Shown here piece by piece: positions 1,012 to 14,816 of a stretch of DNA of 16,754 nt; the stretch's first letter is position 1, and every line of letters starts with the position of its first letter. This stretch comes from a virus. Taxonomy: Duplodnaviria; Heunggongvirae; Uroviricota; Caudoviricetes. The stretch spans positions 1 to 16,754 of IMG/VR virus record IMGVR_UViG_2939172355_000006, one strand, 5' to 3'. The translations under genes and the position numbers were made by a program. The notes beneath the pieces were generated by a model. That model searched no databases and was not told the DNA's origin. It saw only the letters and a program-made list of their open reading frames with translations.

Positions 1012-1100
1012 AAGACAGGGATGGTGTCACAAAAAATCACCTAACCTACTGATATAAATGGATTTATATAAACCACTGTCCACATAGCGTCCACATCGAC

Positions 1101-1138
1101 CATAAATAAAGCCCCTCAACTGAGGGGCTATTTTTGTG
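1101..1138 (-). terminator. Hairpin terminator immediately 3' of ogr (bidirectional-looking); candidate position of the prophage att core
   Basis: GCCCCTC (1111-1117), loop AACT, GAGGGGC (1122-1128), flanked by an A-rich tract on one side and TATTTTTGTG on the other. It lies directly after the ogr stop codon. Confidence 0.55.
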
Positions 1139-1139
1139 A

Positions 1140-1358
1140 TCACATCCACATAATTTGCTGCCCTGACGGCAACGGGTGCGGCCTCACGGCGTGGACTTCT
1201 CCCGGCTTCACGATGTATCTCTGTACCGACTCATAAGTGATGAACGTGGCGCTGCAATTCACGTTCTGGCACTGGTGATAACGCTCTTTTGTCGTGTCAG
1301 TGATATAGCGGCTTGTACGCGCATGTGCGGCATGCTGGCATAAAGGACAATGAAACAT
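1140..1358 (-). CDS. ogr: Ogr, zinc-finger late-gene transcriptional activator of P2-like phages
   Basis: 72 aa product MFHCPLCQHAAHARTSRYITDTTKERYHQCQNVNCSATFITYESVQRYIVKPGEVHAVRPHPLPSGQQIMWM with a CxxC...CxxC zinc-binding arrangement; near-identical to P2 Ogr as I recall it. ATG at 1358; the ORF-track extension to 1433 is rejected. Confidence 0.9.
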   Translation of the reverse strand: MFHCPLCQHAAHARTSRYITDTTKERYHQCQNVNCSATFITYESVQRYIVKPGEVHAVRPHPLPSGQQIMWM

Positions 1359-1470
1359 CGCGAGCACCTCTTCCGGTTTTGTTGATAGTGCCATTTTAGT
1401 TAAATTATCATTATAAAACAAAAAGATAAACAAAAGACATCACTCATAATCTTCTGTTTCGTACTCCACA

Positions 1471-2286
1471 TCAGAAACCGTCGCGGCGAATCAGCGTAGT
1501 GACGCCTGACTCGTTAAGCAGGTCAGCATCGGTGCCGGACTCCTGCAAATCCCAGAATACAGATGCGCTGATGCCGGTAACACCGTTCACCCCGACATTG
1601 GACAGCGTTTTATGCCAGCCCTGCTCCTGGTCGATTTTAGCGCGCAGCCCCAGCGCACGGGCGGTGGCATACGCGGTGGCGGTGGTACTGGTGACCGTAT
1701 CCCATGCGAGGAAATCCGGCCAGATGACCATCAGCTCACGCTGGCTGAAATTCTGGCGGTAGGCTTTCACCTCGGAAATGGTTTTACAGCCCCATGCGCT
1801 GATATACCCGAAAGCGCGCAGCTTCTGACAGACTGATGCCAGTGCAACAGCCACCTCTTTGGTATCCAGCCCCGGCACGCCGAGAATACGCGGTTTAACA
1901 CCGGTTACCGACTCCGCCGCCAGCAGGGCTTTCAGTCCGGTGTACTGACCGTTTTCGTCGGTGGTGCCGATGATATTGGAAACGGTCTGCGCAAGTTTCG
2001 CTTCCTCGTCGTCGCCGGTGCCGTCTTCCACACGCACGACAACGGTGACCGGTTTTGACTGGTCGGCGATGGCCTGCAACGATGCCGCCAGCGTGCCTTT
2101 TTTACCGGCCTTTGCAATTGCGCTCTGCACATTGGTAATCAGCACTGGTTTATTGAGGGGGAAGATTTCCGCATCCGCATCGCTGGCCGTGCAGACCATG
2201 CCAACAATGGCGGTGGATACGGTGGAAATGACGCGGGTGCCGTCGTTAATCTCCAGCACCTGCACGCCGTGATGATAGTCACTCAT
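1471..2286 (-). pseudogene. Tail sheath protein (P2 gpFI-like), N-terminal 271 codons only; 3'-truncated
   Basis: Product begins MSDYHHGVQVLEINDGTRVISTVSTAIVGMVCTASDADAE..., which I recognise as the N-terminus of P2-family contractile tail sheath proteins (about 390 aa when intact). The frame stops after ...TTLIRRDGF and ogr follows 110 bp downstream with no tail tube, E, T, U or D genes in between. GGAG lies 8 nt upstream of the ATG at 2286. Confidence 0.7.
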
Positions 2287-2605
2287 CCGTTTAACTCCGT
2301 GGTTAATGGGTGCAACTATTTTCTGTTGGGCAGTGCATGAGACGCTATTTGACCTGGCTGGTCAGTGGATGAAACAACAGATAAAGAAAAGGCAGGCAAT
2401 TCGCCCGCCTGTCCTGATTTGTACTCACTCATTTTCCGACTGACAATTTACATAGCCAAAACGCTATCAAATCTGACAGTCTGCTTTGAGCGAGGAGCAG
2501 AGGTTAGTTTTAGTTAACCAAAATGATAAAAAGCAGTAGAAAAATCCGCTCATTACGTTATGGTTATAAGCCGCACATAATCATCCGAGCCAAATCCTCT
2601 TGATT

Positions 2606-3505
2606 TCAAAGAATTAGCACTTGCTCTTCACTAGAAACTATGGTTCTGACTTCACGCTCAAATATTGGATCCATTATCATTTTTCTATTTGTTGGAATAG
2701 TAAATTTACCGAGTACCATGACAATGCTACTCAACGGAAATAATTTTGGAGTAACATTTCCTAATTGAATCGTAGGATATATATTAAAGCCCCCTTTTAT
2801 CCTCATTGGCGAACCTTCAATGAAGTGTCGATAATTAAATTTCGCCATAGGGATTCTCGCCACATGCACTTTCATAATTACAGCAACCTGAGCTATTTTT
2901 ACTTTCTGGAGGTAAGTTGACAATCGTTCTAACTGCGTTGTTTCATAGAAAAAATCAGACCACGTTACAGTACTTGTTCCAGTAACAATTTTTATGCTGT
3001 TTCTCTTGTTGGGGTGAGCTTTTCCATATTCATAGATCTCCCGTAAGCTATCCATGTTCTTCACATAAGGGGCTTTCCGACCTCTCTTGACATAAACGCG
3101 GTCTGTAGTATCAGAAGGTGGATTTGCCTGCATAGCTGCAGCTTTTCTGCTTAATTTAGAGATATCATCTTCATCGAGTATATGTATACGGAATATATTA
3201 TTACCTGTGGCAAGCGCACGGCTGATATCATGACTGGAATCACTTGCATAAATTGTATTCAATCCTGAAGTTCCATACTGGCATAATTTGTCATGCGTGA
3301 AATTTTTTTCCAGTCTAAAGAAGGCGGGGATATGCAAGGTTTTATTAAAACTCCGACGAATATGGCTTTTGACATACACCAAATGAGCAGAGCAATTTGG
3401 GTCAGGACATTTGAGTGGATAGGGATTAACACTATAATTAAAAGTATTTACATTTACTAAAATCTGATTGTTATCAATAGCCTGAGTTATACGAATACCA
3501 CTCAT
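2606..3505 (-). CDS. Hypothetical 299 aa protein (AT-rich cargo gene in the Z/fun position between tail fiber assembly gene G and sheath gene FI)
   Basis: Clean ORF with ATG at 3505 preceded by GGAGGAG (4 nt spacing). Codon usage is visibly AT-rich compared with flanking phage genes. N-terminal Cys/His cluster (KCPDPNCSAHLVYVKSH...H...H...C). No family recognised by eye. Confidence 0.75.
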   Translation of the reverse strand: MSGIRITQAIDNNQILVNVNTFNYSVNPYPLKCPDPNCSAHLVYVKSHIRRSFNKTLHIPAFFRLEKNFTHDKLCQYGTSGLNTIYASDSSHDISRALATGNNIFRIHILDEDDISKLSRKAAAMQANPPSDTTDRVYVKRGRKAPYVKNMDSLREIYEYGKAHPNKRNSIKIVTGTSTVTWSDFFYETTQLERLSTYLQKVKIAQVAVIMKVHVARIPMAKFNYRHFIEGSPMRIKGGFNIYPTIQLGNVTPKLFPLSSIVMVLGKFTIPTNRKMIMDPIFEREVRTIVSSEEQVLIL

Positions 3506-3645
3506 TACTCCTCCATAAAGATAGGCGCAAGCATTTAGTAATAAACCATTAACATGCCGAGATCATACCCGATCATTGAAATGTAAACACTCCCCTAAGA
3601 CGGCTGCTGGCATAATATTTTATGACATCAGCAATGCCCACCTCT

Positions 3646-3685
3646 GGCACAGAGTGGACTGTCAGATTAGGCTTTACTCTGTGCC
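3646..3685. repeat. Inverted repeat GGCACAGAGT ... ACTCTGTGCC (10 bp arms, 20 nt loop) between gene G and the cargo gene
   Basis: Perfect 10 bp arms at 3646-3655 and 3676-3685. Not followed by a U tract on either strand, so more likely a regulatory or processing structure than a simple terminator. Confidence 0.5.
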
Positions 3686-3720
3686 ATAGATATGTAAGCC
3701 CACACTAGAGCTCATACAAC

Positions 3721-4248
3721 TTATTGCGGCATTTCCGGCCATTCAGGATTTGCAGGATCCACACGACTGACCAGAACACTATAGCGTTCCCATGCCTCCA
3801 GTCGACTACGCTCCTCATCTGTTGCCATATTCAGCCTGACCGCGCGCTCCAGCGGCAAAATCACGGATTCAGCTTCGGAAAGCAAAGCTGCCTTATGTAA
3901 TTCCGCCAGTTTCTGCTGTTCGTCTGCCGTATAAATCCGCTTAATCACGGCACCATCCTTAAACATCCATTTACCTGAGTCGTCAGCACGTCGGTTGGAG
4001 GTAATATCAGGAACCTCAACAACGCTAAAACCTTCAGGATTAAGCGTTGAAGCATCTCTGGTGATAGCGACAATAATATTATTTTCATCGTAAACAATCT
4101 TTATTGTGTCTGGCTGAAAGTTCTTCACTTCCTCATACCAGTTTTTTCCGTCCTCAGAGTAAAGCCAGATAACTCCGTGTTTCTTTGTTAACTCATACTG
4201 TTCCAGTGTTTTAGCGTTACCCGCTTTTATGTTCTTTAAGTGCATCAT
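3721..4248 (-). CDS. Tail fiber assembly protein (P2 gpG-like chaperone)
   Basis: 175 aa product [23 protein letters not shown]...[20 protein letters not shown]...[27 protein letters not shown] has the characteristic tail-fiber-assembly (Tfa/gpG) sequence pattern and sits immediately 3' of the tail fiber gene. Confidence 0.85.
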
Positions 4249-4249
4249 A

Positions 4250-5347
4250 TTAAACGCTCGCTACATTATACCAGGTGCCATTTATATACTTTTGAACGGG
4301 TCTGTAATAAACGCCCGCTATATTATCGGCAGAGTTGGACCCTGTATCCTGAACATTAATACCAGACAATACATGACCTGACGGGCACTGGAAATTCCAT
4401 GTTTGCCAGTTGTTCACTCCATAATATTGCTGTGACCCAAGTCGAACATCTTTCACATATCTGGAATCAAAATTGCCATAGTTGCCAGGAATAACTTGCG
4501 AGCCACAAAGCCAGTTACCGTTATTATCCATGTACGCCTGACCATCGGTGCCATTGGCTGTCCTTGAGTTATTAATCATGTAGATGCCAAATTGCTTATT
4601 TCCCAGACCGCCAATCATAAATTTGCGGTCGGCATGGTCCTGACGGAGCAAAGCCTGAGCACCATCAGTGGATACCGCATTACGTCCAAAAATAACATTC
4701 TGGTCACGCATATGAATCCACATGCCTGTGCTGCTGTTAATTGCAAGGCGGTTTGCGTACACCCATGCGTTAGTTGTTATATCTCCTGTAACATCCAGAG
4801 CGTGCCCCATAGTTATGCGACCAGTTCTGAGATTCAACGAAAAGGGGCGTAGTGGCCCGATATCACCATTTTCCCCCTCATTCTCTCGTGTGGGGATAAT
4901 ATGCAGGCATTCTTCAGAACGGCGAAAAATAGCACCAAAGGATGAATTAAAGATTCTCAGTGCATTGACTGTCGATATTTTTACTTCACTGCTGAAAAGG
5001 GCTTTAACAAGGACAGACAAAGCATCCCATTTAAGATTCATCAGGTCTTTTGTTGTGGTGCCCTGACGGCTTCTCCATTTGAAATATTCATTGCCGTTGT
5101 CGCCTGTTTCAAACCACATGTATGAATCAGTGTCACCATCGGCATCATTTTTAAATCCAATCTTCGCCCAGTCAGTATTTCGAATCCAGGCAAGGATTGA
5201 GTCGTTTTCAAAAGTAAGTCCACCGGACAAGGTATCGCCATTTTTTTGCACGGCGTTCCCGGCTCGGTTTACCGTTTCCTGTAAACCGAGATATTCGATA
5301 ACGGCGGCAACGGTCGATTTAGCCAGAATACCGTGAGCGCGCTGGTT
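4250..5347 (-). pseudogene. Tail fiber protein (P2 gpH-like), C-terminal ~365 codons; 5'-truncated, no start codon
   Basis: The frame opens directly after an in-frame stop at 5348-5350 and reads ...GILAKSTVAAVIEYLGLQETVNRAGNAVQKNGDTLSGGLTFENDSILAWIRNTDWAKIGF...[17 protein letters not shown], matching the conserved middle and C-terminal receptor-binding part of P2-type tail fibers. The N-terminal baseplate-attachment domain is missing. The track start at 5251 is a GTG inside the fragment. Confidence 0.72.
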
Positions 5348-5691
5348 TCAGGTTCATACTCAATCACCGCCCCGTCAGGGAAACGGATATGCAGGGCATC
5401 CGCCGACGCAGACGGCGCGGGGTTATCGCCGGAATAAATCCCCGGCAGAACGAACGCCGTGTCGAGTTCACCACCCACGGCCAGAATCAGCACCTGTTCC
5501 CCCACGGAAGGTGCCCACCATGTGCGCGAACGCCCGGCGCGATGGGTCAGCCACTGAAGCCAGTCGGTGCACATGCCGCCGGTCTGCACACGGCAGCGAC
5601 CGGCATTAAGGTCGGTTTCGACGATAATGCCGGTGCGGATCATGTTGCGCAGTGCGCGCGCGAGTTCCTGAATATTTGCGAGAGTGTTCAT
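5269..5691 (-). pseudogene. Baseplate spike protein (P2 gpV-like), N-terminal fragment fused out of frame into the tail fiber remnant
   Basis: From the ATG at 5691: MNTLANIQELARALRNMIRTGIIVETDLNAGRCRVQTGG...IRFPDGAVIEYEPETSALTV matches the gpV N-terminus, then reads FWLNRPLPPLSNISVYRKR*, which is the tail fiber DNA in a different frame. Baseplate genes W, J and I are absent. Confidence 0.7.
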
Positions 5692-5774
5692 GCGTGTGAG
5701 ATTGCACAATATATAAAAGTTATGCTATCTGGATTCATTTGTAGAACGACCATACAACATTCGAGGAGAGCGTA

Positions 5775-6560
5775 ATGTTCAGTGATAATGTGACTAATGC
5801 GTGGTGGTTTATCTCTTTGTATCTATTTTTATTAATAGCATTAACATTTGTTACCTTTGGTAAAAGTAATCTTATGAGGTTTATTGCACATCATTTCAAT
5901 CTTGAGTATTCAGACAGAAAGTTAAAAATGCTCGACAAAAAATGGCGCGACATTCAACTATTTAAAATAATTAACGGAATCAATGTATCAGGCATCGAAG
6001 ATGTGAGAATGATACAGCAGGGGCTGATTGATGGAAAACTAAAAACATCGTATTTTTTCCTTACTCGCTTCTGGGGTGACATAACAAAACCACCACACAT
6101 AATTAAAACAACAATTGTAATTCTGGCCAGTATTATTTATATTCTCTTCGCATGTTATATACACAATGAACAATCCGCTATAGTAAGGGATGCCATAGGT
6201 ATACCATATAAAAATATGATGTACTATGTTTATAGTGACAAAGTTCTTTTATCCTTCAAAAATAAAACGGTTGAATTTAATAAAACTTATAGCCTTGCCG
6301 ATTGCAAGAGTCTGCAAAACGTATTTATAAAAGACACACTTCCCGAGATCGCCTGCAATAAGCTCTTACAGCTAAACAAGGAGGACTCCGAATGGTTAAG
6401 TCAGGAGATTAAAGATAATAACAGCTACAGAAAAACATTATTAATAATGTCCCTAACCTATTTCATTTCAGGTCTGCTTATATTCCTGTCATATACAAAA
6501 TTCCTTTACGCCAATAAGAAGGTTTTAGAATACAAAGCATCAAATAAAAACCACTCATAA
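5775..6560 (+). CDS. Hypothetical integral membrane protein, 261 aa (AT-rich insertion between S and V, opposite strand to the late genes)
   Basis: ATG at 5775 preceded by GAGGAG (4 nt spacing). Three strongly hydrophobic segments (AWWFISLYLFLLIALTFVTF; IIKTTIVILASIIYILFACYI; LLIMSLTYFISGLLIFLSYT). Very AT-rich; no family recognised. Confidence 0.6.
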   Translation: MFSDNVTNAWWFISLYLFLLIALTFVTFGKSNLMRFIAHHFNLEYSDRKLKMLDKKWRDIQLFKIINGINVSGIEDVRMIQQGLIDGKLKTSYFFLTRFWGDITKPPHIIKTTIVILASIIYILFACYIHNEQSAIVRDAIGIPYKNMMYYVYSDKVLLSFKNKTVEFNKTYSLADCKSLQNVFIKDTLPEIACNKLLQLNKEDSEWLSQEIKDNNSYRKTLLIMSLTYFISGLLIFLSYTKFLYANKKVLEYKASNKNHS

Positions 6561-6570
6561 ACCTCTAAAT

Positions 6571-6597
6571 ATTGAGCGACCAGCACGGCCGCTCAAT
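6571..6597. terminator. Hairpin ATTGAGCG ... CGCTCAAT between convergent genes (membrane protein gene and S)
   Basis: 8 bp inverted repeat with an 11 nt loop, located between the two convergent stop codons (6560 and 6632). U-rich flank is modest on both sides. Confidence 0.45.
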
Positions 6598-6631
6598 GCT
6601 TAATTGCGCATCAGCCTCTGCCTGGATAAAA

Positions 6632-7084
6632 CTAACGCTCAAGGTGAGCCAGGATAATCTCTTCAATCATCTGCACATCCTCACCGGTAAAGCCGAGCAG
6701 AGGACGCGCCGGATAATCAATTTTCTTACCGTCTTTCCGGTTTTCTTCCGACAGACCGAACTGATGCACACTGGCGATTTTCGGTGACTTCCCGCCGTAA
6801 AACTCCATTGATGCCTGTTCCGGGCTGGCGCGGATATGCAAAAAACGACTGGTGATAAGTTTCGCAAACATTTTTCGCTTAACACGACCGGTCTTTTTTC
6901 TGGCGCTCTGCTGCTGGCGTGGCGCGTAGGGTGTGCCGTCCGGAGTTTTCTGTGCCATCACCCGACGCTGCTGACTCTGCCGCAGGCGTTTCGCCAGTTC
7001 GGCACTCAGTCGCCGACGCCCTGACGGTGACAGCGATTCAATCAGTCCGGTCAGCCGGTCTTCAAAACGCTTAAACTCATTCAT
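6632..7084 (-). CDS. Tail completion protein S (P2 gpS-like)
   Basis: 150 aa MNEFKRFEDRLTGLIESLSPSGRRRLSAELAKRLRQSQQRRVMAQKTPDGTPYAPRQQQ...IILAHLER; matches P2 gpS in length and sequence as recalled. Start overlaps the end of R by 8 nt. Confidence 0.85.
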   Translation of the reverse strand: MNEFKRFEDRLTGLIESLSPSGRRRLSAELAKRLRQSQQRRVMAQKTPDGTPYAPRQQQSARKKTGRVKRKMFAKLITSRFLHIRASPEQASMEFYGGKSPKIASVHQFGLSEENRKDGKKIDYPARPLLGFTGEDVQMIEEIILAHLER

Positions 7085-7544
7085 CCCACTTGCTCACCAG
7101 TTCGCCATTGATATACAGCTCCATCGGGCGGGTGACCGGCTCCGGCGGCGGAGGTTCCGGGATATTCTTCACATGCAGCGCGCCGTCCACCTCACTGACC
7201 AGCGTGCGCTCGGTCAGCATCAGGCTGATACTGATATCAAAGCTGCTGTCATTGTTGATGTCCGCATAAAACGTGAAGCCCTTTTTCTGGCCTGCGTCGG
7301 TGGTCATGATGTCGGGCTGATTTTCCCGCAGCCACGCTAGCACCGGCACGATGAGCAGGTCAAAATCACCGGTAAAGTCGGTCACAATGACATTGAGCGT
7401 GTAACGCTTTTCAAATGACAGCGACCTCGCCAGTGTGGAGGCAATACTCCCGTTATCCACGAATATCCGCAGCATCTCGGGACTGGTTTTCAGCACCGTG
7501 ACAGCATCAGTCAGCGCCCTGCGCAGGCTGTCGGGTTTGAGCAT
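7077..7544 (-). CDS. Tail completion protein R (P2 gpR-like)
   Basis: 155 aa MLKPDSLRRALTDAVTVLKTSPEMLRIFVDNGSIASTLARSLSFEKRYTLNVIVTDFTGDFDLLIVPVLAWLREN...; matches P2 gpR in length and sequence as recalled. Confidence 0.85.
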   Translation of the reverse strand: MLKPDSLRRALTDAVTVLKTSPEMLRIFVDNGSIASTLARSLSFEKRYTLNVIVTDFTGDFDLLIVPVLAWLRENQPDIMTTDAGQKKGFTFYADINNDSSFDISISLMLTERTLVSEVDGALHVKNIPEPPPPEPVTRPMELYINGELVSKWDE

Positions 7545-7797
7545 CGTTTTCGTCCTGACAGTGTTTAATCATTTTTACCTGGCTGGCACAGCGTGCCAGC
7601 GCGTTCTCAAGCTGCCGGATATCAGCACTTAAATCGCCGTTCGTCTCCGGGTCACTGCCCGGCATCGGGCAAAGGCTCACTTTCGGGCAGGCGTTGTGGA
7701 CAATCACTGGCGTCGGCGCAGGCCGGGCGCTGGTGCAACCGGCGCACAGCATCAGGCAGGTCAGCGCCGTACCAGCGGCGAAAATCTTCGTTTTCAT
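7507..7797 (-). CDS. lysC: LysC, outer-membrane lipoprotein spanin (Rz1-like), encoded out of frame within the 3' part of lysB
   Basis: From the ATG at 7797: MKTKIFAAGTALTCLMLCAGC... has a signal peptide with a lipobox (LCAGC), Pro-rich, 96 aa. Embedded in an alternative frame of the lysB region (overlap 7652-7797) and extending into R, the known P2 spanin arrangement. The ORF-track extension to 7914 is rejected. Confidence 0.7.
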   Translation of the reverse strand: MKTKIFAAGTALTCLMLCAGCTSARPAPTPVIVHNACPKVSLCPMPGSDPETNGDLSADIRQLENALARCASQVKMIKHCQDENDAQTRQPAQGAD

Positions 7798-8077
7798 TAA
7801 GTAACCTCGTGATGGTTTTCTCGCGCTGTGCTTCACGCTTCGCGGCGTTCTCCAGCTCCTGACGCAGTGCCACCTGCGCCAGCTCGTTTTTGTCTGCCCT
7901 GGTAAGGGCAACATGAAGCTGATTTTTCAGCATGGTGATGGTCGTCTGCTGTTCACTGGCGACGTTGTTCGCCCTGTCCAGCGAGGCGCGCAGGCTGGCA
8001 TTTTTGTGTTTCACCAGAAACAGACCGGCCACCGCCAGTGATAACAACACGACCAGCACAATCATCAGCTTTGACAT
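7652..8077 (-). CDS. lysB: LysB, inner-membrane spanin (Rz-like)
   Basis: 141 aa with an N-terminal TM segment (MSKLMIVLVVLLSLAVAGLFLV) followed by a charged coiled-coil-like region; matches P2 LysB. Confidence 0.8.
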   Translation of the reverse strand: MSKLMIVLVVLLSLAVAGLFLVKHKNASLRASLDRANNVASEQQTTITMLKNQLHVALTRADKNELAQVALRQELENAAKREAQREKTITRLLNENEDFRRWYGADLPDAVRRLHQRPACADASDCPQRLPESEPLPDAGQ

Positions 8078-8490
8078 GGTTCCCGCCCCTCAAAACGCTG
8101 ACAGCAGGCCGTACGTATCAGCCGGAAGAACACCGATGCCACGAGATAAATCAGCGCGGTAAAAATCCCCCCGGCAGCGACCAGCGAGATAAACGTCGCC
8201 ACCATCACTACCAGAGCCACTGACCGCCTGCGCCACGGCACCGGCTGCAAAAACAGCGCCGTGACAATCTTCACGGCCAGCGATTCCGGCGGCAGCTCCC
8301 GCCCGTAACGTTCCAGTACATACTCAGTGGCATACACGCCGACACCACCGGCAACCACACAGATAACCGTCGCCAGAATCGCCCAGGCGGCGACAAAACT
8401 GACGGCCACGCTCTGCGGGTAAATCAGGGACAGTGCCAGCATCAGCGCCAGCGACACGTTCAGCATCAGTGAAAGGGATAATTTCTTCAT
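8065..8490 (-). CDS. lysA: LysA, membrane protein of the P2 lysis cassette (lysis timing)
   Basis: 141 aa MKKLSLSLMLNVSLALMLALSLIYPQSVAV... with four hydrophobic segments; matches P2 LysA. No holin (Y) or endolysin (K) gene lies upstream of it; a portal fragment on the other strand abuts its start codon. Confidence 0.8.
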   Translation of the reverse strand: MKKLSLSLMLNVSLALMLALSLIYPQSVAVSFVAAWAILATVICVVAGGVGVYATEYVLERYGRELPPESLAVKIVTALFLQPVPWRRRSVALVVMVATFISLVAAGGIFTALIYLVASVFFRLIRTACCQRFEGREPCQS

Positions 8491-9364
8491 GGTGTTTACT
8501 CCGTTTACCGGTCTGGCAAAAAGCCTGCGTGCTGCCGTGCATCACAGCTCACCGATTTACGTCAAACGTAACATTCTGGCCTCAACGTTTATCCCACACC
8601 CGTGGCTTTCTCAGCAGGATTTCAGCCGCTTTGTGCTGGATTTTCTGGTATTCGGTAATGCGTTTCTGGAAAAGCGTTACAGCACCACCGGTAAGGTCAT
8701 CAGACTGGAAACCTCACCGGCAAAATATACCCGCCGTGGCGTGGAGGAGGATGTTTACTGGTGGGTGCCGTCCTTCAACGAGCCGACACCTTTCGCGCCC
8801 GGCTCCGTGTTTCACCTGCTGGAGCCGGATATTAATCAGGAGCTGTACGGTCTGCCGGAATATCTCAGCGCCCTTAACTCTGCCTGGCTGAATGAGTCGG
8901 CCACGCTGTTCCGCCGCAAGTATTACGAAAACGGCGCTCATGCCGGATATATCATGTACGTCACTGATGCCGTGCAGGATCGCAACGATATCGAAATGCT
9001 TCGCGAAAACATGGTGAAGTCGAAAGGCCGCAACAACTTTAAAAACCTGTTTCTCTATGCCCCGCAGGGGAAAGCTGACGGCATTAAAATTATCCCGCTC
9101 AGTGAAGTGGCAACGAAGGACGATTTTTTTAATATCAAAAAAGCCAGCGCCGCTGACCTGCTGGACGCGCACCGCATCCCCTTTCAGTTGATGGGCGGCA
9201 AGCCGGAGAACGTCGGGTCGCTGGGTGATATTGAGAAAGTAGCAAAGGTCTTTGTCCGCAATGAGCTTATCCCGTTACAGGACAGGATCCGCGAGATAAA
9301 CGGCTGGCTCGGTCAGGAGGTCATCCGATTTAAAAACTACTCACTGGACACTGACAACGGCTGA
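8489..9364 (+). pseudogene. Portal protein (P2 gpQ-like), C-terminal ~270 codons; 5'-truncated
   Basis: ...SPIYVKRNILASTFIPHPWLSQQDFSRFVLDFLVFGNAFLEKRY...YIMYVTDAVQDRNDIEMLRENMVKSKGRNNFKNLFLYAPQGKADGIKIIPL...GQEVIRFKNYSLDTDNG reads as the C-terminal part of a P2-family portal. Strand and position next to cos fit the P2 map. The N-terminal part and the terminase gene P are missing; the exact 5' boundary is uncertain. Confidence 0.6.
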
Positions 9365-9369
9365 ACATC

Positions 9370-9391
9370 GCCGCCTGCGGGCGGCTTTTTT
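9370..9391 (+). terminator. Rho-independent terminator after the portal fragment: GCCGCC-tgcg-GGCGGC followed by TTTTTT
   Basis: Perfect 6 bp GC stem with a 4 nt loop and a run of six T residues, 6 nt after the stop codon at 9362-9364. Confidence 0.65.
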
Positions 9392-9533
9392 ACACCCCGT
9401 CATCACGCCCTCACACGTTCGCCACTGTACAAAACACCCCGCAGACACACCAACGCCCCGGCAGGCCGACTAAACGCCATCACGACGCGCTCAGACGCTG
9501 AAAAAATAAAATCAGCACCACCGCCAGCGCGCA

Positions 9534-9552: not shown

Positions 9553-9779
9553 CGCCCGCTTCATGGGTCGGTTTTGATGCAATTCCAAAAGCCGTCCAAA
9601 CTCTCTTAGGCTAAATGTCCAACGAGAAAATAGTTCTTTGAATGTGAATGCATTTTAATGCAGAGTTATGCCCAGCATTTTTGTACACTTCGATGTATCA
9701 AATGCGCTGCAAACGATCAAATATGGATGTTTTATCAAGCATCCCCCAAAAGATATTTACATCATCCCATGAGGTTAAG

Positions 9780-10853
9780 ATGGATAACAAAATCGTAGAA
9801 ATTGAGACAAATAAGCTTGATTTTGACCCTAAAAACCCACGTTTCTTTCGTCTCAATGATGCCAGTAACGCTGCAACAGTCATTGAGGAAATGTTAGATG
9901 ACGAAAGTGTCCACGATCTAATGCTATCAATCGGTCAGCAAGGTTACTTTCCTGGAGAACCTTTATTGGCAGTAAAAAGCAATGGAAACTACATCGTGGT
10001 TGAGGGAAACAGACGCTTAGCTGCTGTAAAGTTGCTCAATGGAGATCTGCTTCCTCCAAAAAGAAAACTTAAAGGTGTGCAAGAAATCATTGATGATACT
10101 ACCAATAAACCTAAGAAGCTTCCCTGCATCATTTATGAAAACCGAGAGGATGTACTGAGATATATCGGTTATCGTCATATAACTGGGGTCAAAGAATGGG
10201 ACTCATTATCTAAAGCCAAATACCTTAAAGAGTTATGTGATACTTTTTATTCACATGAGCCTAAAGAGATAGTATTAAAAAATCTGGCTCGTGAGATTGG
10301 GAGTAAACCACATTATGTTGCAACACTTCTCACTGCACTGAACTTATATGAAGTCGCGCATGACCATGAGTTTTTTAATTTACCCATGAAGGCTTCTGAC
10401 GTGGAATTTTCATATATAACCACAGCTTTGGGATATTCAAAAATCACAAACTGGTTAGGTCTACAGGATAAAAAGGATTTTTTAGACCCAAATTTAAATG
10501 AAGAAAACCTTAAGCGTTTATTCTCTTGGTTTTTTGTGCCTGACCAACAAGGTAGAACCATCATCGGTGAGTCTCGAAGAATAAAAGATATTGCAGCAGT
10601 GGTTGAGAAACCCGAAGCAATTGAAATTCTCATGAAAAGTTCAAACTTGGATGAAGCATATCTATATACCAGCGGAGAAAGAGAAGCATTAGATAAAGCA
10701 CTAAACGCAGCTAGTGTTAAATTAAGAGTAGTTTGGGATATGCTACTTAAAGCTAAAGAATTAACATTAGAGCATGAAGAGGCTGCATCTGAAATTTTTG
10801 AGATGTCAAAAAATATTAGAAATCAGATCAGAAGCAAAAGGGAGGATGATTGA
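9780..10853 (+). CDS. ParB/Srx-like nuclease-domain protein, 357 aa (cargo gene 1 in the old/tin position)
   Basis: ATG at 9780 preceded by GAGG (7 nt spacing). The N-terminal ~90 aa carry ParB N-terminal domain signatures: IVEIETNKLDFDPKNPR ... VHDLMLSIGQQGYFPGEPLLAVKSNGNYIVVEGNRRLAAVKLL (GxRR box at about nt 10005-10016). C-terminal two thirds are helical and unrecognised. AT-rich. The track start at 9648 has no RBS and is rejected. Confidence 0.8.
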   Translation: MDNKIVEIETNKLDFDPKNPRFFRLNDASNAATVIEEMLDDESVHDLMLSIGQQGYFPGEPLLAVKSNGNYIVVEGNRRLAAVKLLNGDLLPPKRKLKGVQEIIDDTTNKPKKLPCIIYENREDVLRYIGYRHITGVKEWDSLSKAKYLKELCDTFYSHEPKEIVLKNLAREIGSKPHYVATLLTALNLYEVAHDHEFFNLPMKASDVEFSYITTALGYSKITNWLGLQDKKDFLDPNLNEENLKRLFSWFFVPDQQGRTIIGESRRIKDIAAVVEKPEAIEILMKSSNLDEAYLYTSGEREALDKALNAASVKLRVVWDMLLKAKELTLEHEEAASEIFEMSKNIRNQIRSKREDD

Positions 10854-11883
10854 GATTATGATTACAAATCTTGATTCAATGCCTTCTAATGAGCCTTATT
10901 TATGGGCTGATTATATTGAGATATTGGCCTTAACTAATATCGACAGGTCATTCAGTCGAGGAGACCTATATAGCACACTGCAAGCTCAACCCGAAGCAGT
11001 ACTAGCTGAAACAGATGAAGCAGAAGAAGAGGGCGTTTATGATGTTGATGATGAAAATGATACGCCTGTACGCAAGAGAACAAAACGAAGTGTTAGTCGA
11101 GCATATACTGACAGAAAGTGGAGCTATGCGATAGGCTTCATACGACAACGCATTGATTTATTTGGGGATAGTTACCCTTTTACTTTATCAGAAGACAACG
11201 ATACTGTAGAGTTACGTGATATATCAGAAAAGCCACTGGAACATTTAGAAAGACTATATTTAGCTTTACTAATCTGTGCTAACATAAAATATGTCAACAT
11301 AATGAGCAGAAGAGAGATAACGCGCAGTTTTGAACTAATTAGTTTACCTATTTTTGAAAGCCTAATGCCTAGCGGTAGCATAATAAAAGCATGCTGGGCT
11401 TCTGGTGGTCAAGCGGCCCCTTACACTGGAACTCTATATAATAAATTTAAGAGTATTGCTTCCGATATCCGTTGCACAGCGAACTTCAAAGAACGAGATT
11501 TCAGTCGAGGAAATAGTGGTGACGGAGGCCTTGACATAATTGCCTGGCATCCAATGGGAGATCAACGAGATGCCATCCCTATTTCTTTTGTTCAGTGTGG
11601 CTGTTCTCAAGAAGAGTGGGAAGCGAAGCAGCTTGAGGCCTCACCTGCGATGCTCTACAGTAAATTCCCCGTAGCTCACCGATGGGCAACTTATTATTTC
11701 TTACCTCAAGATCTACGATGGATAGATGGTGAGTGGGCGCATAAAAATAAGTTAGGCGATGCTATTTTTGTTGATCGCCTAAGATTAATCAATTTAACCA
11801 GAGCATCTGATAATATTGATCACAGTCAAAATATTAGCTATCTAGATATCATCCTTGATCCTTCCAGCGCGATCGCTGCTTAA
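10846..11883 (+). CDS. Hypothetical ~340 aa protein, candidate PD-(D/E)xK-type nuclease (cargo gene 2), translationally coupled to the ParB-like gene
   Basis: Start ATG at 10846 overlaps the upstream stop (ATGATTGA) with GGAGG immediately 5'; an alternative ATG is at 10858. C-terminal region has ...GNSGDGGLDIIAWHP-(x21)-ISFVQCGCSQEEWEAK..., compatible with a D ... E-x-K catalytic core (about nt 11520-11630). Stop TAA at 11881-11883 overlaps the convergent methyltransferase stop. Confidence 0.65.
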   Translation: MIEIMITNLDSMPSNEPYLWADYIEILALTNIDRSFSRGDLYSTLQAQPEAVLAETDEAEEEGVYDVDDENDTPVRKRTKRSVSRAYTDRKWSYAIGFIRQRIDLFGDSYPFTLSEDNDTVELRDISEKPLEHLERLYLALLICANIKYVNIMSRREITRSFELISLPIFESLMPSGSIIKACWASGGQAAPYTGTLYNKFKSIASDIRCTANFKERDFSRGNSGDGGLDIIAWHPMGDQRDAIPISFVQCGCSQEEWEAKQLEASPAMLYSKFPVAHRWATYYFLPQDLRWIDGEWAHKNKLGDAIFVDRLRLINLTRASDNIDHSQNISYLDIILDPSSAIAA

Positions 11884-12818
11884 TCCCATAAATCTGGAAG
11901 GTTTCTAGCAACCGCCTCAAACAATGGAGGCGGTACTGCATTACCTACCACAGTATATTTCATATTAATAGAAGCCCGTTCAGTTTCTGGGAAAATTAAA
12001 TCCCCAAAACCTTGTAAAATAGCAGCCTCTCGATAGCTAAACCTACGAGCTGGTGCATCCGAAGTAAATTGCCACTTATCAGGTCCCAATTTTTCTAATG
12101 TTGGACTTATTGGATGTAGAGGCATATGTCTAGGATTTGCAACAATTGTTTTAGATATCTGATCCCAATCTTGCCTACGGTTTCGCGATAGATAATACCA
12201 ATGAAAATCGGCGTCATAAAACTCGCCAACAGGCCAAACAGGCATATGCCCAATAGCATCACGAATTGTGGAATATGGTGTCAAACCATCACCATGTGTT
12301 GGTTTTGGAAATTTGTATGTAATACCGTAGTCCTTTCGTATTCCTACGATAAAGATTCGCTTCCTATCTTGGGATACCCCATAATGGGACGCATTCAGAA
12401 TTTGCGAGCTTACTGTATAACCTGCTTCTTCGAAAACTTTGAATTGATCCTTTAATAAATGCTCAAAGTTACGCCTTACCATACCAGAGACATTCTCTAC
12501 AATGAATGCTTTTGGCTTAATTTTACTCAAAGCACGGGCAAACTCTAAATATAGTGTATTAATCTTTCTATCTGCCTTCCTTGCCCCACCTTGACTAAAT
12601 CCTTGGCAAGGATAGCATCCGATGAGCAACTCAGCAGAAGGGAACGACTGGAGCCCTGAGATATCGCCCAAAATGTAGTCAGTTTCAGGATGGTTTTCTA
12701 AGTAAACGTCCCTTGCGTAAGGCAAAATATCATTTGCCATAAGCACATTGAAACCTGCGTTCAAAACTCCCGCATCAGAACCACCACATCCAGAAAAAAG
12801 TGAAACTACAGTTGGCAT
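11880..12818 (-). CDS. DNA (cytosine-5)-methyltransferase, 312 aa (cargo gene 3)
   Basis: Canonical m5C-MTase motifs in standard order: FSGCGG (motif I, aa 8-13), PCQGFS (motif IV, aa 70-75), ENV (motif VI, aa 108-110), QDRKRIFIVG (motif VIII), GNAVPPPL (motif X). ATG at 12818 preceded by GGAGG at 5 nt. Convergent with the upstream ORF, with a 4 nt overlap (TTAA). Confidence 0.9.
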   Translation of the reverse strand: MPTVVSLFSGCGGSDAGVLNAGFNVLMANDILPYARDVYLENHPETDYILGDISGLQSFPSAELLIGCYPCQGFSQGGARKADRKINTLYLEFARALSKIKPKAFIVENVSGMVRRNFEHLLKDQFKVFEEAGYTVSSQILNASHYGVSQDRKRIFIVGIRKDYGITYKFPKPTHGDGLTPYSTIRDAIGHMPVWPVGEFYDADFHWYYLSRNRRQDWDQISKTIVANPRHMPLHPISPTLEKLGPDKWQFTSDAPARRFSYREAAILQGFGDLIFPETERASINMKYTVVGNAVPPPLFEAVARNLPDLWD

Positions 12819-13060: not shown

Positions 13061-13267
13061 CTATCGTCTGCGTTGTGGTGGCGCAACTCTGGACTGACCG
13101 ATATGGTTAAACCGCCCGTAATTATCCCGGACTATTTCGGCACACCCGACCAGCTCATCGGGCGTCAGATTTTCGTTGACCATAATCCGCTGTAAACGCT
13201 GAACAATAGCCATCAGCTTGATATTTTTAGTTTTATGGTGCGGTATCTCGCCTGGTATTCTGTGCAT
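13061..13267 (-). CDS. Small hypothetical protein, 68 aa, translationally coupled (TAATG) to the upstream gene
   Basis: ATG at 13265-13267 overlaps the TAA of the preceding gene. MHRIPGEIPHHKTKNIKLMAIVQRLQRIMVNENLTPDELVGCAEIVRDNYGRFNHIGQSRVAPPQRRR. No recognisable domain; could be a regulator. Low confidence that it is expressed. Confidence 0.4.
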   Translation of the reverse strand: MHRIPGEIPHHKTKNIKLMAIVQRLQRIMVNENLTPDELVGCAEIVRDNYGRFNHIGQSRVAPPQRRR

Positions 13268-13719
13268 TATCCAAGCCACCCGTTTTGCTGTGCACGCTCC
13301 ATCTGTTCATCTGAATAGTTCCATGCTCCATCCGTGGCAACCATTGCCCCGCCAGACATCCCCGTCTCTGGTTCATACATAACAGCAAGGCCGAGCTGAT
13401 GCATAATTTCATGATTAATTCTGAATACCAGACCACGCTCACTAAGTTCTTTCCAGTTCACAATCTCACATGCGCCTGTATTAAGCCGCTCAATACTTAG
13501 CAAGACATAATCTTCCAGCCAGTCTGACAGGTCAGTAACATCTGTTATCCGGGCTTCAACCTTTCGCCCCGTATACACACCCTGCACCCATTCATGCAAA
13601 ATCAACGTGTCCCCGCGCTCATAATTACGGTCATTTTTCCGAAACTCTGCGCGTTTCTTTCCTTCCAGCACAAGGTCAAAATATTTTGCGTGCAGCTTTA
13701 CCTCGTGAATTTTTGCCAT
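13267..13719 (-). CDS. Hypothetical 150 aa protein with ASCH/DUF3850-like N-terminal region and a C-terminal HExxH motif
   Basis: ATG at 13719 overlaps the upstream stop (TAATG) with GGAG 9 nt upstream. [44 protein letters not shown]... resembles the small ASCH-like proteins found in P2-family early operons; the tail contains FRINHEIMHQLGL (HExxH). Confidence 0.55.
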   Translation of the reverse strand: MAKIHEVKLHAKYFDLVLEGKKRAEFRKNDRNYERGDTLILHEWVQGVYTGRKVEARITDVTDLSDWLEDYVLLSIERLNTGACEIVNWKELSERGLVFRINHEIMHQLGLAVMYEPETGMSGGAMVATDGAWNYSDEQMERAQQNGWLG

Positions 13720-14252
13720 TATGTCCACTCCATTACTGTTGAGAATCCCGGCCACTCATCAGCGACCGGATACGTGAATTTTTTCCCGTCATAATTTACG
13801 GTCGCTCCACGCGCCAGCGCCTCAAGCTCCCATCGCTGAGGCCTGATACCGTTCTGAGCAAGGTCAACGCGGATACGGGTGATTTGCATTCGTTCCGACC
13901 GGGTCAGTCTGGCCGACGGTGCAATTTCATGTGTTTTTAACGGGCTTCCGTTTCTTTGTTGACGATTTGGTGTTTTCAGGCCGTGTTTTAATGCTCCCCT
14001 GAGCGCCCTCACGACCTCCGGGTCATTCCATTCGATAACACCGTCATCAACCAGATTTAGCACTGCTGCGGCGTGCTCAGAAGGTGTGGGAGCCGGTAAC
14101 GAAGCATCACTACCGGTGAGCTTTGTGATGTGGCGAATCATGGCGTCAAGATGAGAAGAAAAGCGCGTTGCTGCGTCGGCCTGTGCTTCGGTTCTGACCT
14201 GTTGCAGCAGTAATGCGTATTTACCGCACTGATTTTCAGAAACTGTATGCAT
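13719..14252 (-). CDS. Early-operon ORF, 177 aa; probably a deletion fusion whose C-terminal ~140 aa derive from the 3' end of replication initiator gene A
   Basis: ATG at 14252 with GGAG at 6 nt. The C-terminal part (...[38 protein letters not shown]...[21 protein letters not shown]) matches what I recall as the C-terminus of P2 gpA, but no rolling-circle initiator domain and no ~2.3 kb A gene exist anywhere between B and cos. The fusion interpretation is an inference. Confidence 0.5.
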
Positions 14253-14315
14253 GACTTTCTCCAGGCAAAAAGAAGCCCCGCACAATTAAGTGCGTTAAAA
14301 ACTCTGGTTAATTAC

Positions 14316-14816
14316 TTAATGCAGATATTGCTCTGGTTTTACCGACGTCAGGATTGTCGGTGCATACTCAAACAGGCTGAATAATTCACGTAATGCACGG
14401 AATAAGGCATCACGCCAGTAACATGATTCTTCATTAATTCGCCAGTATGGCTGGTTGAATTCTTTTTCAGTCAATCCGGCATGCATAAATAAAGTACGGC
14501 GCTGACTGACAGTTAAAAAGCTAATATATGCATACTCACTTGCACCGACCTGACGGCGTTTTGAGAATGCCCCACGCAATTCATCAATTGCACATACCAG
14601 TCGTTCACGTTCGACGTCGTTCATTTCTTCAAAACGCATCGTTGCGTGACGCTGTTTTAACTGTGCATGAAAGCAAACCGTTAGCCGTTCGCGCTCCATC
14701 ATCTGATTATAATAATCACATGTATCCTGCCAGCGAGGGACGGCAAGATGCTTGCCAATTATCCGGCGCATAGCTGCTGGCTGTTTTTCAACGAGATTGA
14801 GCGTCATCACTGTCAT
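14316..14816 (-). CDS. Replication protein B (P2 gpB-like, helicase loader)
   Basis: 166 aa MTVMTLNLVEKQPAAMRRIIGKHLAVPRWQDTCDYYNQMMERERLTVCFHAQLKQRH...; length and position (after cox and a small ORF) match P2 gene B. Confidence 0.65.
   Translation of the reverse strand: MTVMTLNLVEKQPAAMRRIIGKHLAVPRWQDTCDYYNQMMERERLTVCFHAQLKQRHATMRFEEMNDVERERLVCAIDELRGAFSKRRQVGASEYAYISFLTVSQRRTLFMHAGLTEKEFNQPYWRINEESCYWRDALFRALRELFSLFEYAPTILTSVKPEQYLH

Follow-up and report, generated by a model that had tools for sequence, protein, structure and literature searches.

Probable deletion scar in the early operon of a decayed Wphi-type P2-like prophage of Escherichia coli

We analyzed a stretch of viral DNA of 16,754 nucleotides (IMG/VR record IMGVR_UViG_2939172355_000006; Caudoviricetes), referred to here as the window, with a focus on the interval between early gene B and the cargo genes. 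The window DNA is 96-97% identical to that of phage Wphi and other peduoviruses. The interval holds three open reading frames (Table 1) and, because of this DNA identity, we consider them homologous genes that did not arise by chance. The sequence TAATG is present at both ORF junctions (ACATAATGGC at 13719 and GGATAATGCAC at 13267), just as the original prediction had described. On the upstream side lie gene B, an orf78 homologue, cox, the C repressor gene, and int, whereas a gene encoding a Dcm-type methylase lies on the downstream side. The latter gene starts at 12818, which leaves a gap of only ~1.5 kb between B and the methylase gene, whereas gene A by itself occupies 2,286 nt in P2. Going downstream, gene B is the last early gene without damage before the altered region. 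A search of the window against Rfam found no RNA family.

Table 1 Features of the region between gene B and the cargo genes, and of the cargo genes.
Feature	Positions in the window	Strand	Details
Gene B, 166 aa, intact	14316..14816	minus	Full-length phrog_235 match; near-identical to Wphi gpB
Terminator-like hairpin between B and orf80	14279..14294	minus	Terminator scan; P2 record annotation
ORF 1, chimera Orf80(1-44)::gpA(629-761), 177 aa	14252→13719 (13719..14252)	minus	ATG start (mechanical ORF list begins at TTG 14285); identities to P2, PHROG, Wphi DNA alignment
orf80' fragment, DUF2732 family, codons 1-44	14121..14252	minus	P2/Wphi alignment
Deletion junction, 4-nt microhomology AAAG common to orf80 and A	14121..14124	minus	Junction probe, P2 sequences
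'A remnant, gpA codons 629-761 and stop	13719..14120	minus	PGAP, P2 gpA comparison
ORF 2, orf91 homologue, 150 aa	13267..13719	minus	Start overlaps the A stop codon; native gene
H103-E-I-M-H107 within DUF7415	13399..13413	minus	NHEIMH is residues 102-107
ORF 3, orf92 homologue, 68 aa	13061..13267	minus	Overlaps the orf91 stop; native gene
Dcm-type cytosine methylase	11880-12818	minus	Cargo
gp96	10774-11883	plus	Cargo; no PADLOC match
gp98	9648-10853	plus	Cargo; PGAP: ParB N-terminal domain protein

The hairpin running from 14294 to 14279 has the sequence of the putative rho-independent terminator that the annotation of P2 places between B and orf80. Because TTG 14285 falls within this hairpin, ATG 14252 is taken as the real start of the first ORF. 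The resulting product is identical to P2 Orf80 residues 1-44 at 42 of 44 positions and to P2 gpA residues 629-761 at 124 of 133 positions (93%), so that its length corresponds to the sum of the two parts in frame (44 + 133 = 177 aa). These identities bear out the earlier proposal that a short early ORF is fused to the C-terminus of a truncated gpA, of which only residues 629-761 are left. The PHROG matches likewise split at residue 43/44, with residues 3-44 matched by phrog_128 (the orf80 family) and residues 43-172 by positions 645-752 of phrog_91 ("nicking at origin of replication"). The Orf80/DUF2732 part is not full length, comprising residues 1-44 of 74 aa (phrog_128 positions 7-48 of 75), and PGAP labels 13719-14126 as "replication endonuclease, incomplete, missing N-terminus". 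No Pfam domain was matched in the 177-aa ORF, including its retained 133 gpA residues.

The junction between the two parts was located by comparison with Wphi (NC_005056, here locus L002) and P2 (AF063097, here locus L003). The window DNA follows the B/orf80 region of Wphi up to CACATCACAAAG (...CACAAAG) and continues from there in the 3' part of A; positions 1847-4610 of L002 are absent from the window, corresponding to a deleted span of 2,764 bp. On the P2 map, the left side extends to L003 2154, in orf80 codon 44, and the sequence resumes on the right at L003 4919, in A codon 629; AAAG ends the P2 sequence on both sides of the junction. As orf80 and A occupy different frames, the loss of 2,764 bp results in an in-frame chimera of 177 aa.

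Of 5,426 complete E. coli genomes, 68 matched a 200-nt junction probe without a break. An assembly artefact was also considered and is ruled out by the presence of the junction in these 68 independent complete assemblies. The two halves of the probe are separate in ~1,600 other genomes, one in a DUF2732 gene and the other in a replication endonuclease gene, and in the genomes with intact phages the separate halves overlap by exactly 4 nt (query nt 103-106). No longer homeology was found at the junction beyond these 4 nt: among 30 upstream positions there are 9 matches, as many as expected by chance, whereas a terminal identity of at least 4 nt occurs in ~0.5% of random position pairs. A junction identity of 4 nt without homeology is what microhomology-mediated illegitimate recombination usually leaves behind, and from the sequences on both sides we infer that this was the mechanism of the deletion.

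Initiator proteins can also generate deletions, as seen in rolling-circle plasmids and filamentous phages, in which case the endpoint falls exactly at the nick. In the window, just 25 nt separate the annotated nick from the right endpoint 3' of it, which might suggest that gpA itself made the deletion, either by terminating rolling-circle replication aberrantly or by strand transfer at ori. We regard such an origin as highly improbable: the endpoint is 25 nt off the nick and within the 4-nt microhomology, and the orf80 side has no ori-like sequence, its 9/30 matching positions being those expected by chance. Recombination at the AAAG microhomology is the preferred mechanism, although, with the endpoint this near the nick, some part played by gpA or by a replication intermediate is conceivable.

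The deletion removed the rest of orf80, all of orf81, orf82, and orf83, and gpA residues 1-628. P2 gpA is an HUH rolling-circle initiator that nicks within its own gene, and the window shares with it the C-terminal 133 residues. The HUH motif (HWHMML, P2 gpA residue 399) and the paired tyrosines YxxxY (YIAKY, P2 gpA 450-454), of which Y450 and Y454 are presumably the active-site tyrosines, both fall within the deleted part and are missing from the 177-aa ORF. The ori nick site, which the rep_origin feature in the GenBank entry of P2 puts at 29892 (L003 4893, within A codon 620), is not retained either, as it falls on the deleted side at a distance of 25 nt from the junction. Because the catalytic core of the initiator and the nick site are both gone, neither a helper phage nor gpA supplied in trans would be expected to rescue replication. 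From established P2 biology we infer that replication of the element is dead. The case for a replication-defective element is stronger than originally claimed, as the ori nick site and orf81-83 are gone and structural genes are truncated; given the loss of the replication parts together with truncated morphogenesis genes, the element is most simply viewed as a dead prophage remnant.

The two ORFs that follow the chimera had been proposed, as part of a chain of coupled small genes, to replace A. Instead, the DUF3850 gene and the 68-aa gene natively follow A in Wphi-type phages, and it is the first ORF alone that the deletion created. The same DNA is found directly 3' of an intact gene A, encoding 761 aa in Wphi-type phages, in Wphi, S164, P22H4, vB_YpM_50, and others. 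The overlap of the A stop and the orf91 start reads ATGATG in Wphi and ATAATG in the window, and the overlap between orf91 and orf92 is identical. The 150-aa protein matches phrog_1812 from end to end (residues 1-149 against positions 1-150 of 150, E 1.9e-82), while the 68-aa protein, which PGAP annotates as hypothetical, matches positions 1-66 of 69 of phrog_11386 and aligns to the orf92 region of Wphi. No defence-system match was found in PADLOC for orf91 or orf92.

The 150-aa protein consists of two domains. The N-terminal one, predicted earlier to be ASCH/DUF3850-like, was confirmed by a DUF3850 match of 65.1 bits (cut-off 22.9) covering profile positions 1-77 of 77 and residues 4-76 of the protein, as well as by an ASCH match of 43.3 bits (cut-off 21.2). 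It also matches PDB 3IUW (E 4.5e-13) and is modelled by AlphaFold with a pLDDT of about 85. The second domain, at residues 86-128, is DUF7415 (PF24187; 54 bits, cut-off 27). The N-terminal 76 residues thus resemble ASCH/DUF3850 (PUA-like) proteins such as 3IUW, to which the window protein adds a C-terminal DUF7415. To our knowledge, the DUF3850 subgroup has no known biochemical function, and the literature on DUF3850 was uninformative on function. The combination of an ASCH domain with an HExxH segment had been called unusual; it turns out to be the full-length architecture of an existing family, phrog_1812, made of DUF3850 and DUF7415.

The string NHEIMH is present in DUF7415 as noted earlier, but it does not represent a conserved HExxH motif. 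In close homologues (52-56% identity), the first histidine is replaced by tyrosine in Salmonella proteins and the second by asparagine in one of these; the homologues with such replacements are 52-54% identical to the window protein. When the C-terminal 71 residues served as query in an exhaustive search without a profile, 194 representatives were retrieved at E ≤ 0.001. Among 180 aligned DUF7415 domains, H103 is kept in 24% (Arg in 31%, Lys in 14%, Thr in 10%), whereas N102 is found in 99%, E104 in 87%, and H107 in 97%. In the same alignment, G96, L97, I101, N102, H107, G110, L111, and A112 are each conserved in at least 91% of the domains, and the core G-L-x-x-R-I-N-x-E-I-L-H-P-x-G-L-A, nearly invariant in the family, is present in the 150-aa protein. 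On this alignment, the HExxH is a fortuitous match that arises at a variable position beside a conserved N-x-E-x-x-H helix, and no zinc-protease site is predicted.

The structural models are consistent with this conclusion. When the whole 150-aa protein was modelled with AlphaFold from a 12-sequence alignment, the C-terminal domain had a pLDDT below 50; DUF7415 alone, modelled with 85 sequences, reached a pLDDT of 94 and is predicted to form a helix/β-hairpin/helix fold of ~55 residues. Searches of PDB structures with the DUF7415 model found no neighbour among solved structures, the zincin fold included, so that the suggested relation to metallopeptidases does not hold at the level of the fold. 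The H-E-x-x-H string is the only feature in common with zincin metallopeptidases, and it is limited to the window protein and its closest relatives; the first histidine is not conserved, the fold is dissimilar, and the domain has only ~55 residues.

Taken at face value, the TAATG overlaps and the HExxH string at residues 103-107 could indicate that coupled small genes functionally replaced A and that they include a novel fusion of ASCH with a metallopeptidase that uses its HExxH. This reading has next to no probability in our estimation. It conflicts with the presence of the same two genes, with their overlaps, behind an intact 761-aa A in Wphi-type phages, with the pre-existing phrog_1812 architecture, with the retention of H103 in just 24% of 180 homologues (Tyr in close ones), and with a confident model of a ~55-residue domain that has neither a zincin nor any other solved-structure neighbour. 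Two outcomes had been named in advance as speaking against the original prediction: one, an unconserved HExxH, was observed, but the 177-aa ORF is not a full-length match to an intact small protein. The interpretation of orf91 and orf92 as native neighbours of A is retained, and the supposed "ASCH-metalloprotease" is removed as a false lead.

In BFVD, the neighbours of the DUF7415 model are only other uncharacterised DUF7415 phage proteins, from phages of Proteus, Morganella, Salmonella, Vibrio, and Streptomyces. Most DUF7415 proteins are stand-alone and 60-130 aa long, and others are fused to a PF04447 dATP/dGTP pyrophosphohydrolase and to thymidylate kinase (P0070, P0079, and P0131); these fusions hint at a link with nucleotides or nucleic acids. 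It is conceivable, if rather doubtful, that DUF7415 is a new ligand-binding or catalytic module directed at nucleotides or nucleic acids for early phage replication. No mention of DUF7415 was found in the literature, and it is this uncharacterised domain, and not the deletion, that constitutes the unexplored item here.

The 150-aa architecture also corrects the annotation of orf91. Compared with positions 13061-13719 of the window and with other phages, the Wphi record (2003) has at least 6 single-base indels in L002 5009-5524, which split the 150-aa gene into a 93-aa orf91 and a 64-aa gp92. Judging from this comparison, the orf91/gp92 split in Wphi is probably a frameshift artefact of sequencing errors, and we propose the 150-aa form as the true orf91. 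P2 orf91 (109 aa, L003 5317-5646) is identical to the window protein through DUF3850, diverges after about residue 75, and is without DUF7415. A variable hotspot between A and Q of P2-like prophages was described by Rousset et al. (PMC9122126). In view of the divergence of P2 orf91 after about residue 75, the boundary of this A-Q (old/tin) hotspot can fall inside orf91, between its two domains.

Wphi is the closest known relative of the region. It has the order orf80-orf81-orf82-orf83-A-orf91-orf92 around the position of the junction, ~97% DNA identity on both sides, the same A/orf91 and orf91/orf92 overlaps, and the same cargo of mth (Dcm methylase), gp96, and gp98 after A-orf91-orf92; the window differs by the absence of 2,764 bp. 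From ogr to int, the element measures ~15.6 kb as compared to 32.7 kb for phage Wphi. Over 15.6 kb, the window is 100% identical to at least 60 complete E. coli chromosomes. In one of these records, NZ_CP033401, the element is located between fieF and cpxP, and PGAP annotates a partial tail sheath, baseplate V, and portal as well as the incomplete replication endonuclease.

The junction of orf80 codon 44 to A codon 629 is confined to the 68 near-identical genomes, in which the element occupies the fieF-cpxP site. Since the best 60 carriers are 100% identical across the whole 15.6 kb, clonal inheritance is indicated, and conservation among such carriers would be uninformative on selection. Altogether, at least 80% of the 15.6-kb element is present at a single place in 95 complete genomes, and 68 of them have the junction; the remaining 27 may carry intact Wphi-like prophages or less-decayed intermediates.

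The reading frame of the chimera raises the question of whether the fusion is functional. Its two parts share one reading frame, and the start codon, the native ribosome-binding site, and the stop/start overlap on the downstream side are all preserved; prophages of the P2 type are also known to carry anti-phage functions (PMC9122126). The Orf80'-'gpA chimera might therefore have been exapted and the scar kept by selection, e.g. as a dominant-negative protein against incoming P2-like phages or for the translation of orf91 and orf92 through coupling. We find this very improbable for several reasons: an in-frame junction is expected by chance in 1 of 3 cases, the near-identical, clonal-looking carriers give no sign of purifying selection, the retained 133 residues have no Pfam match, and the chimera belongs to a Pe-promoter operon beside an intact C repressor gene and is probably silent. 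The frame of the fusion could reflect this chance expectation of 1 in 3, or selection.

Weighing these observations together, none of which speaks against it, the region is very probably the scar of a deletion that struck the early (Pe) operon of a Wphi-type P2-like E. coli prophage, one that has been inherited vertically and has decayed heavily. A single illegitimate recombination at AAAG would have removed 2,764 bp and joined orf80 codon 44 in frame to A codon 629. The HUH motif, the Y450/Y454 pair, and the nick site of ori are all part of the lost span, and the element would neither make an initiator nor be nicked by one in trans. The genes orf91 and orf92 are the untouched native 3' end of the operon with its stop/start overlaps kept, and the intact C repressor would silence the early operon.

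One microhomology deletion thus accounts for the loss of both the catalytic core of the initiator and the origin, while the cargo, the immunity genes, and the integrase are intact, and such a loss with retention of cargo, immunity, and int is the usual pattern of prophage domestication. The deletion is of a well-known kind, prophage decay, and is already captured by routine annotation; apart from the removal of the false lead, the value of the analysis lies in correct annotation.

Other cryptic P2-like remnants of E. coli likewise have multiple internal deletions with truncated morphogenesis and replication genes, and likewise keep int, C, cox, ogr, and cargo. Their junctions are different in other strains, the orf80-A junction being specific to the 68 genomes. 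In other E. coli lineages, deletions that arose independently have also produced fusions with an endpoint in this early operon: we found three distinct Cox'-'orf91 junctions (P0016/P0017, P0018, and P0034), a Cox'-'A fusion, or cox/'A remnant, at the yegR site of strain LR-28 (L004 3813-4377), and pieces of tail or baseplate genes fused to orf91' (P0014, P0037, and P0042). P2-like prophages seem to lose the replication module repeatedly, and the present scar is one instance of the common process of prophage decay.

Several further features of the element were noted outside the early operon. Positions 1100-9400 of the window are a patchwork: ogrK is intact, partial pseudogenes are left of the tail sheath, baseplate V, and portal genes, and the region still has lysB/lysC for lysis, two tail genes, and a gene for tail-fibre assembly. 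A gene encoding a 261-aa hypothetical protein lies on the opposite strand at 5775-6560 and had no match in PADLOC.

The cargo at the P2 A-Q hotspot (window 9648-12818) is the Wphi set. Within gp98, residues ~45-195 resemble PD-Lambda-5_A of PADLOC, and residues 85-371 match the candidate PDC-M38A. The methylase, gp96, and gp98 may form an uncharacterised methylase-linked defence cassette.
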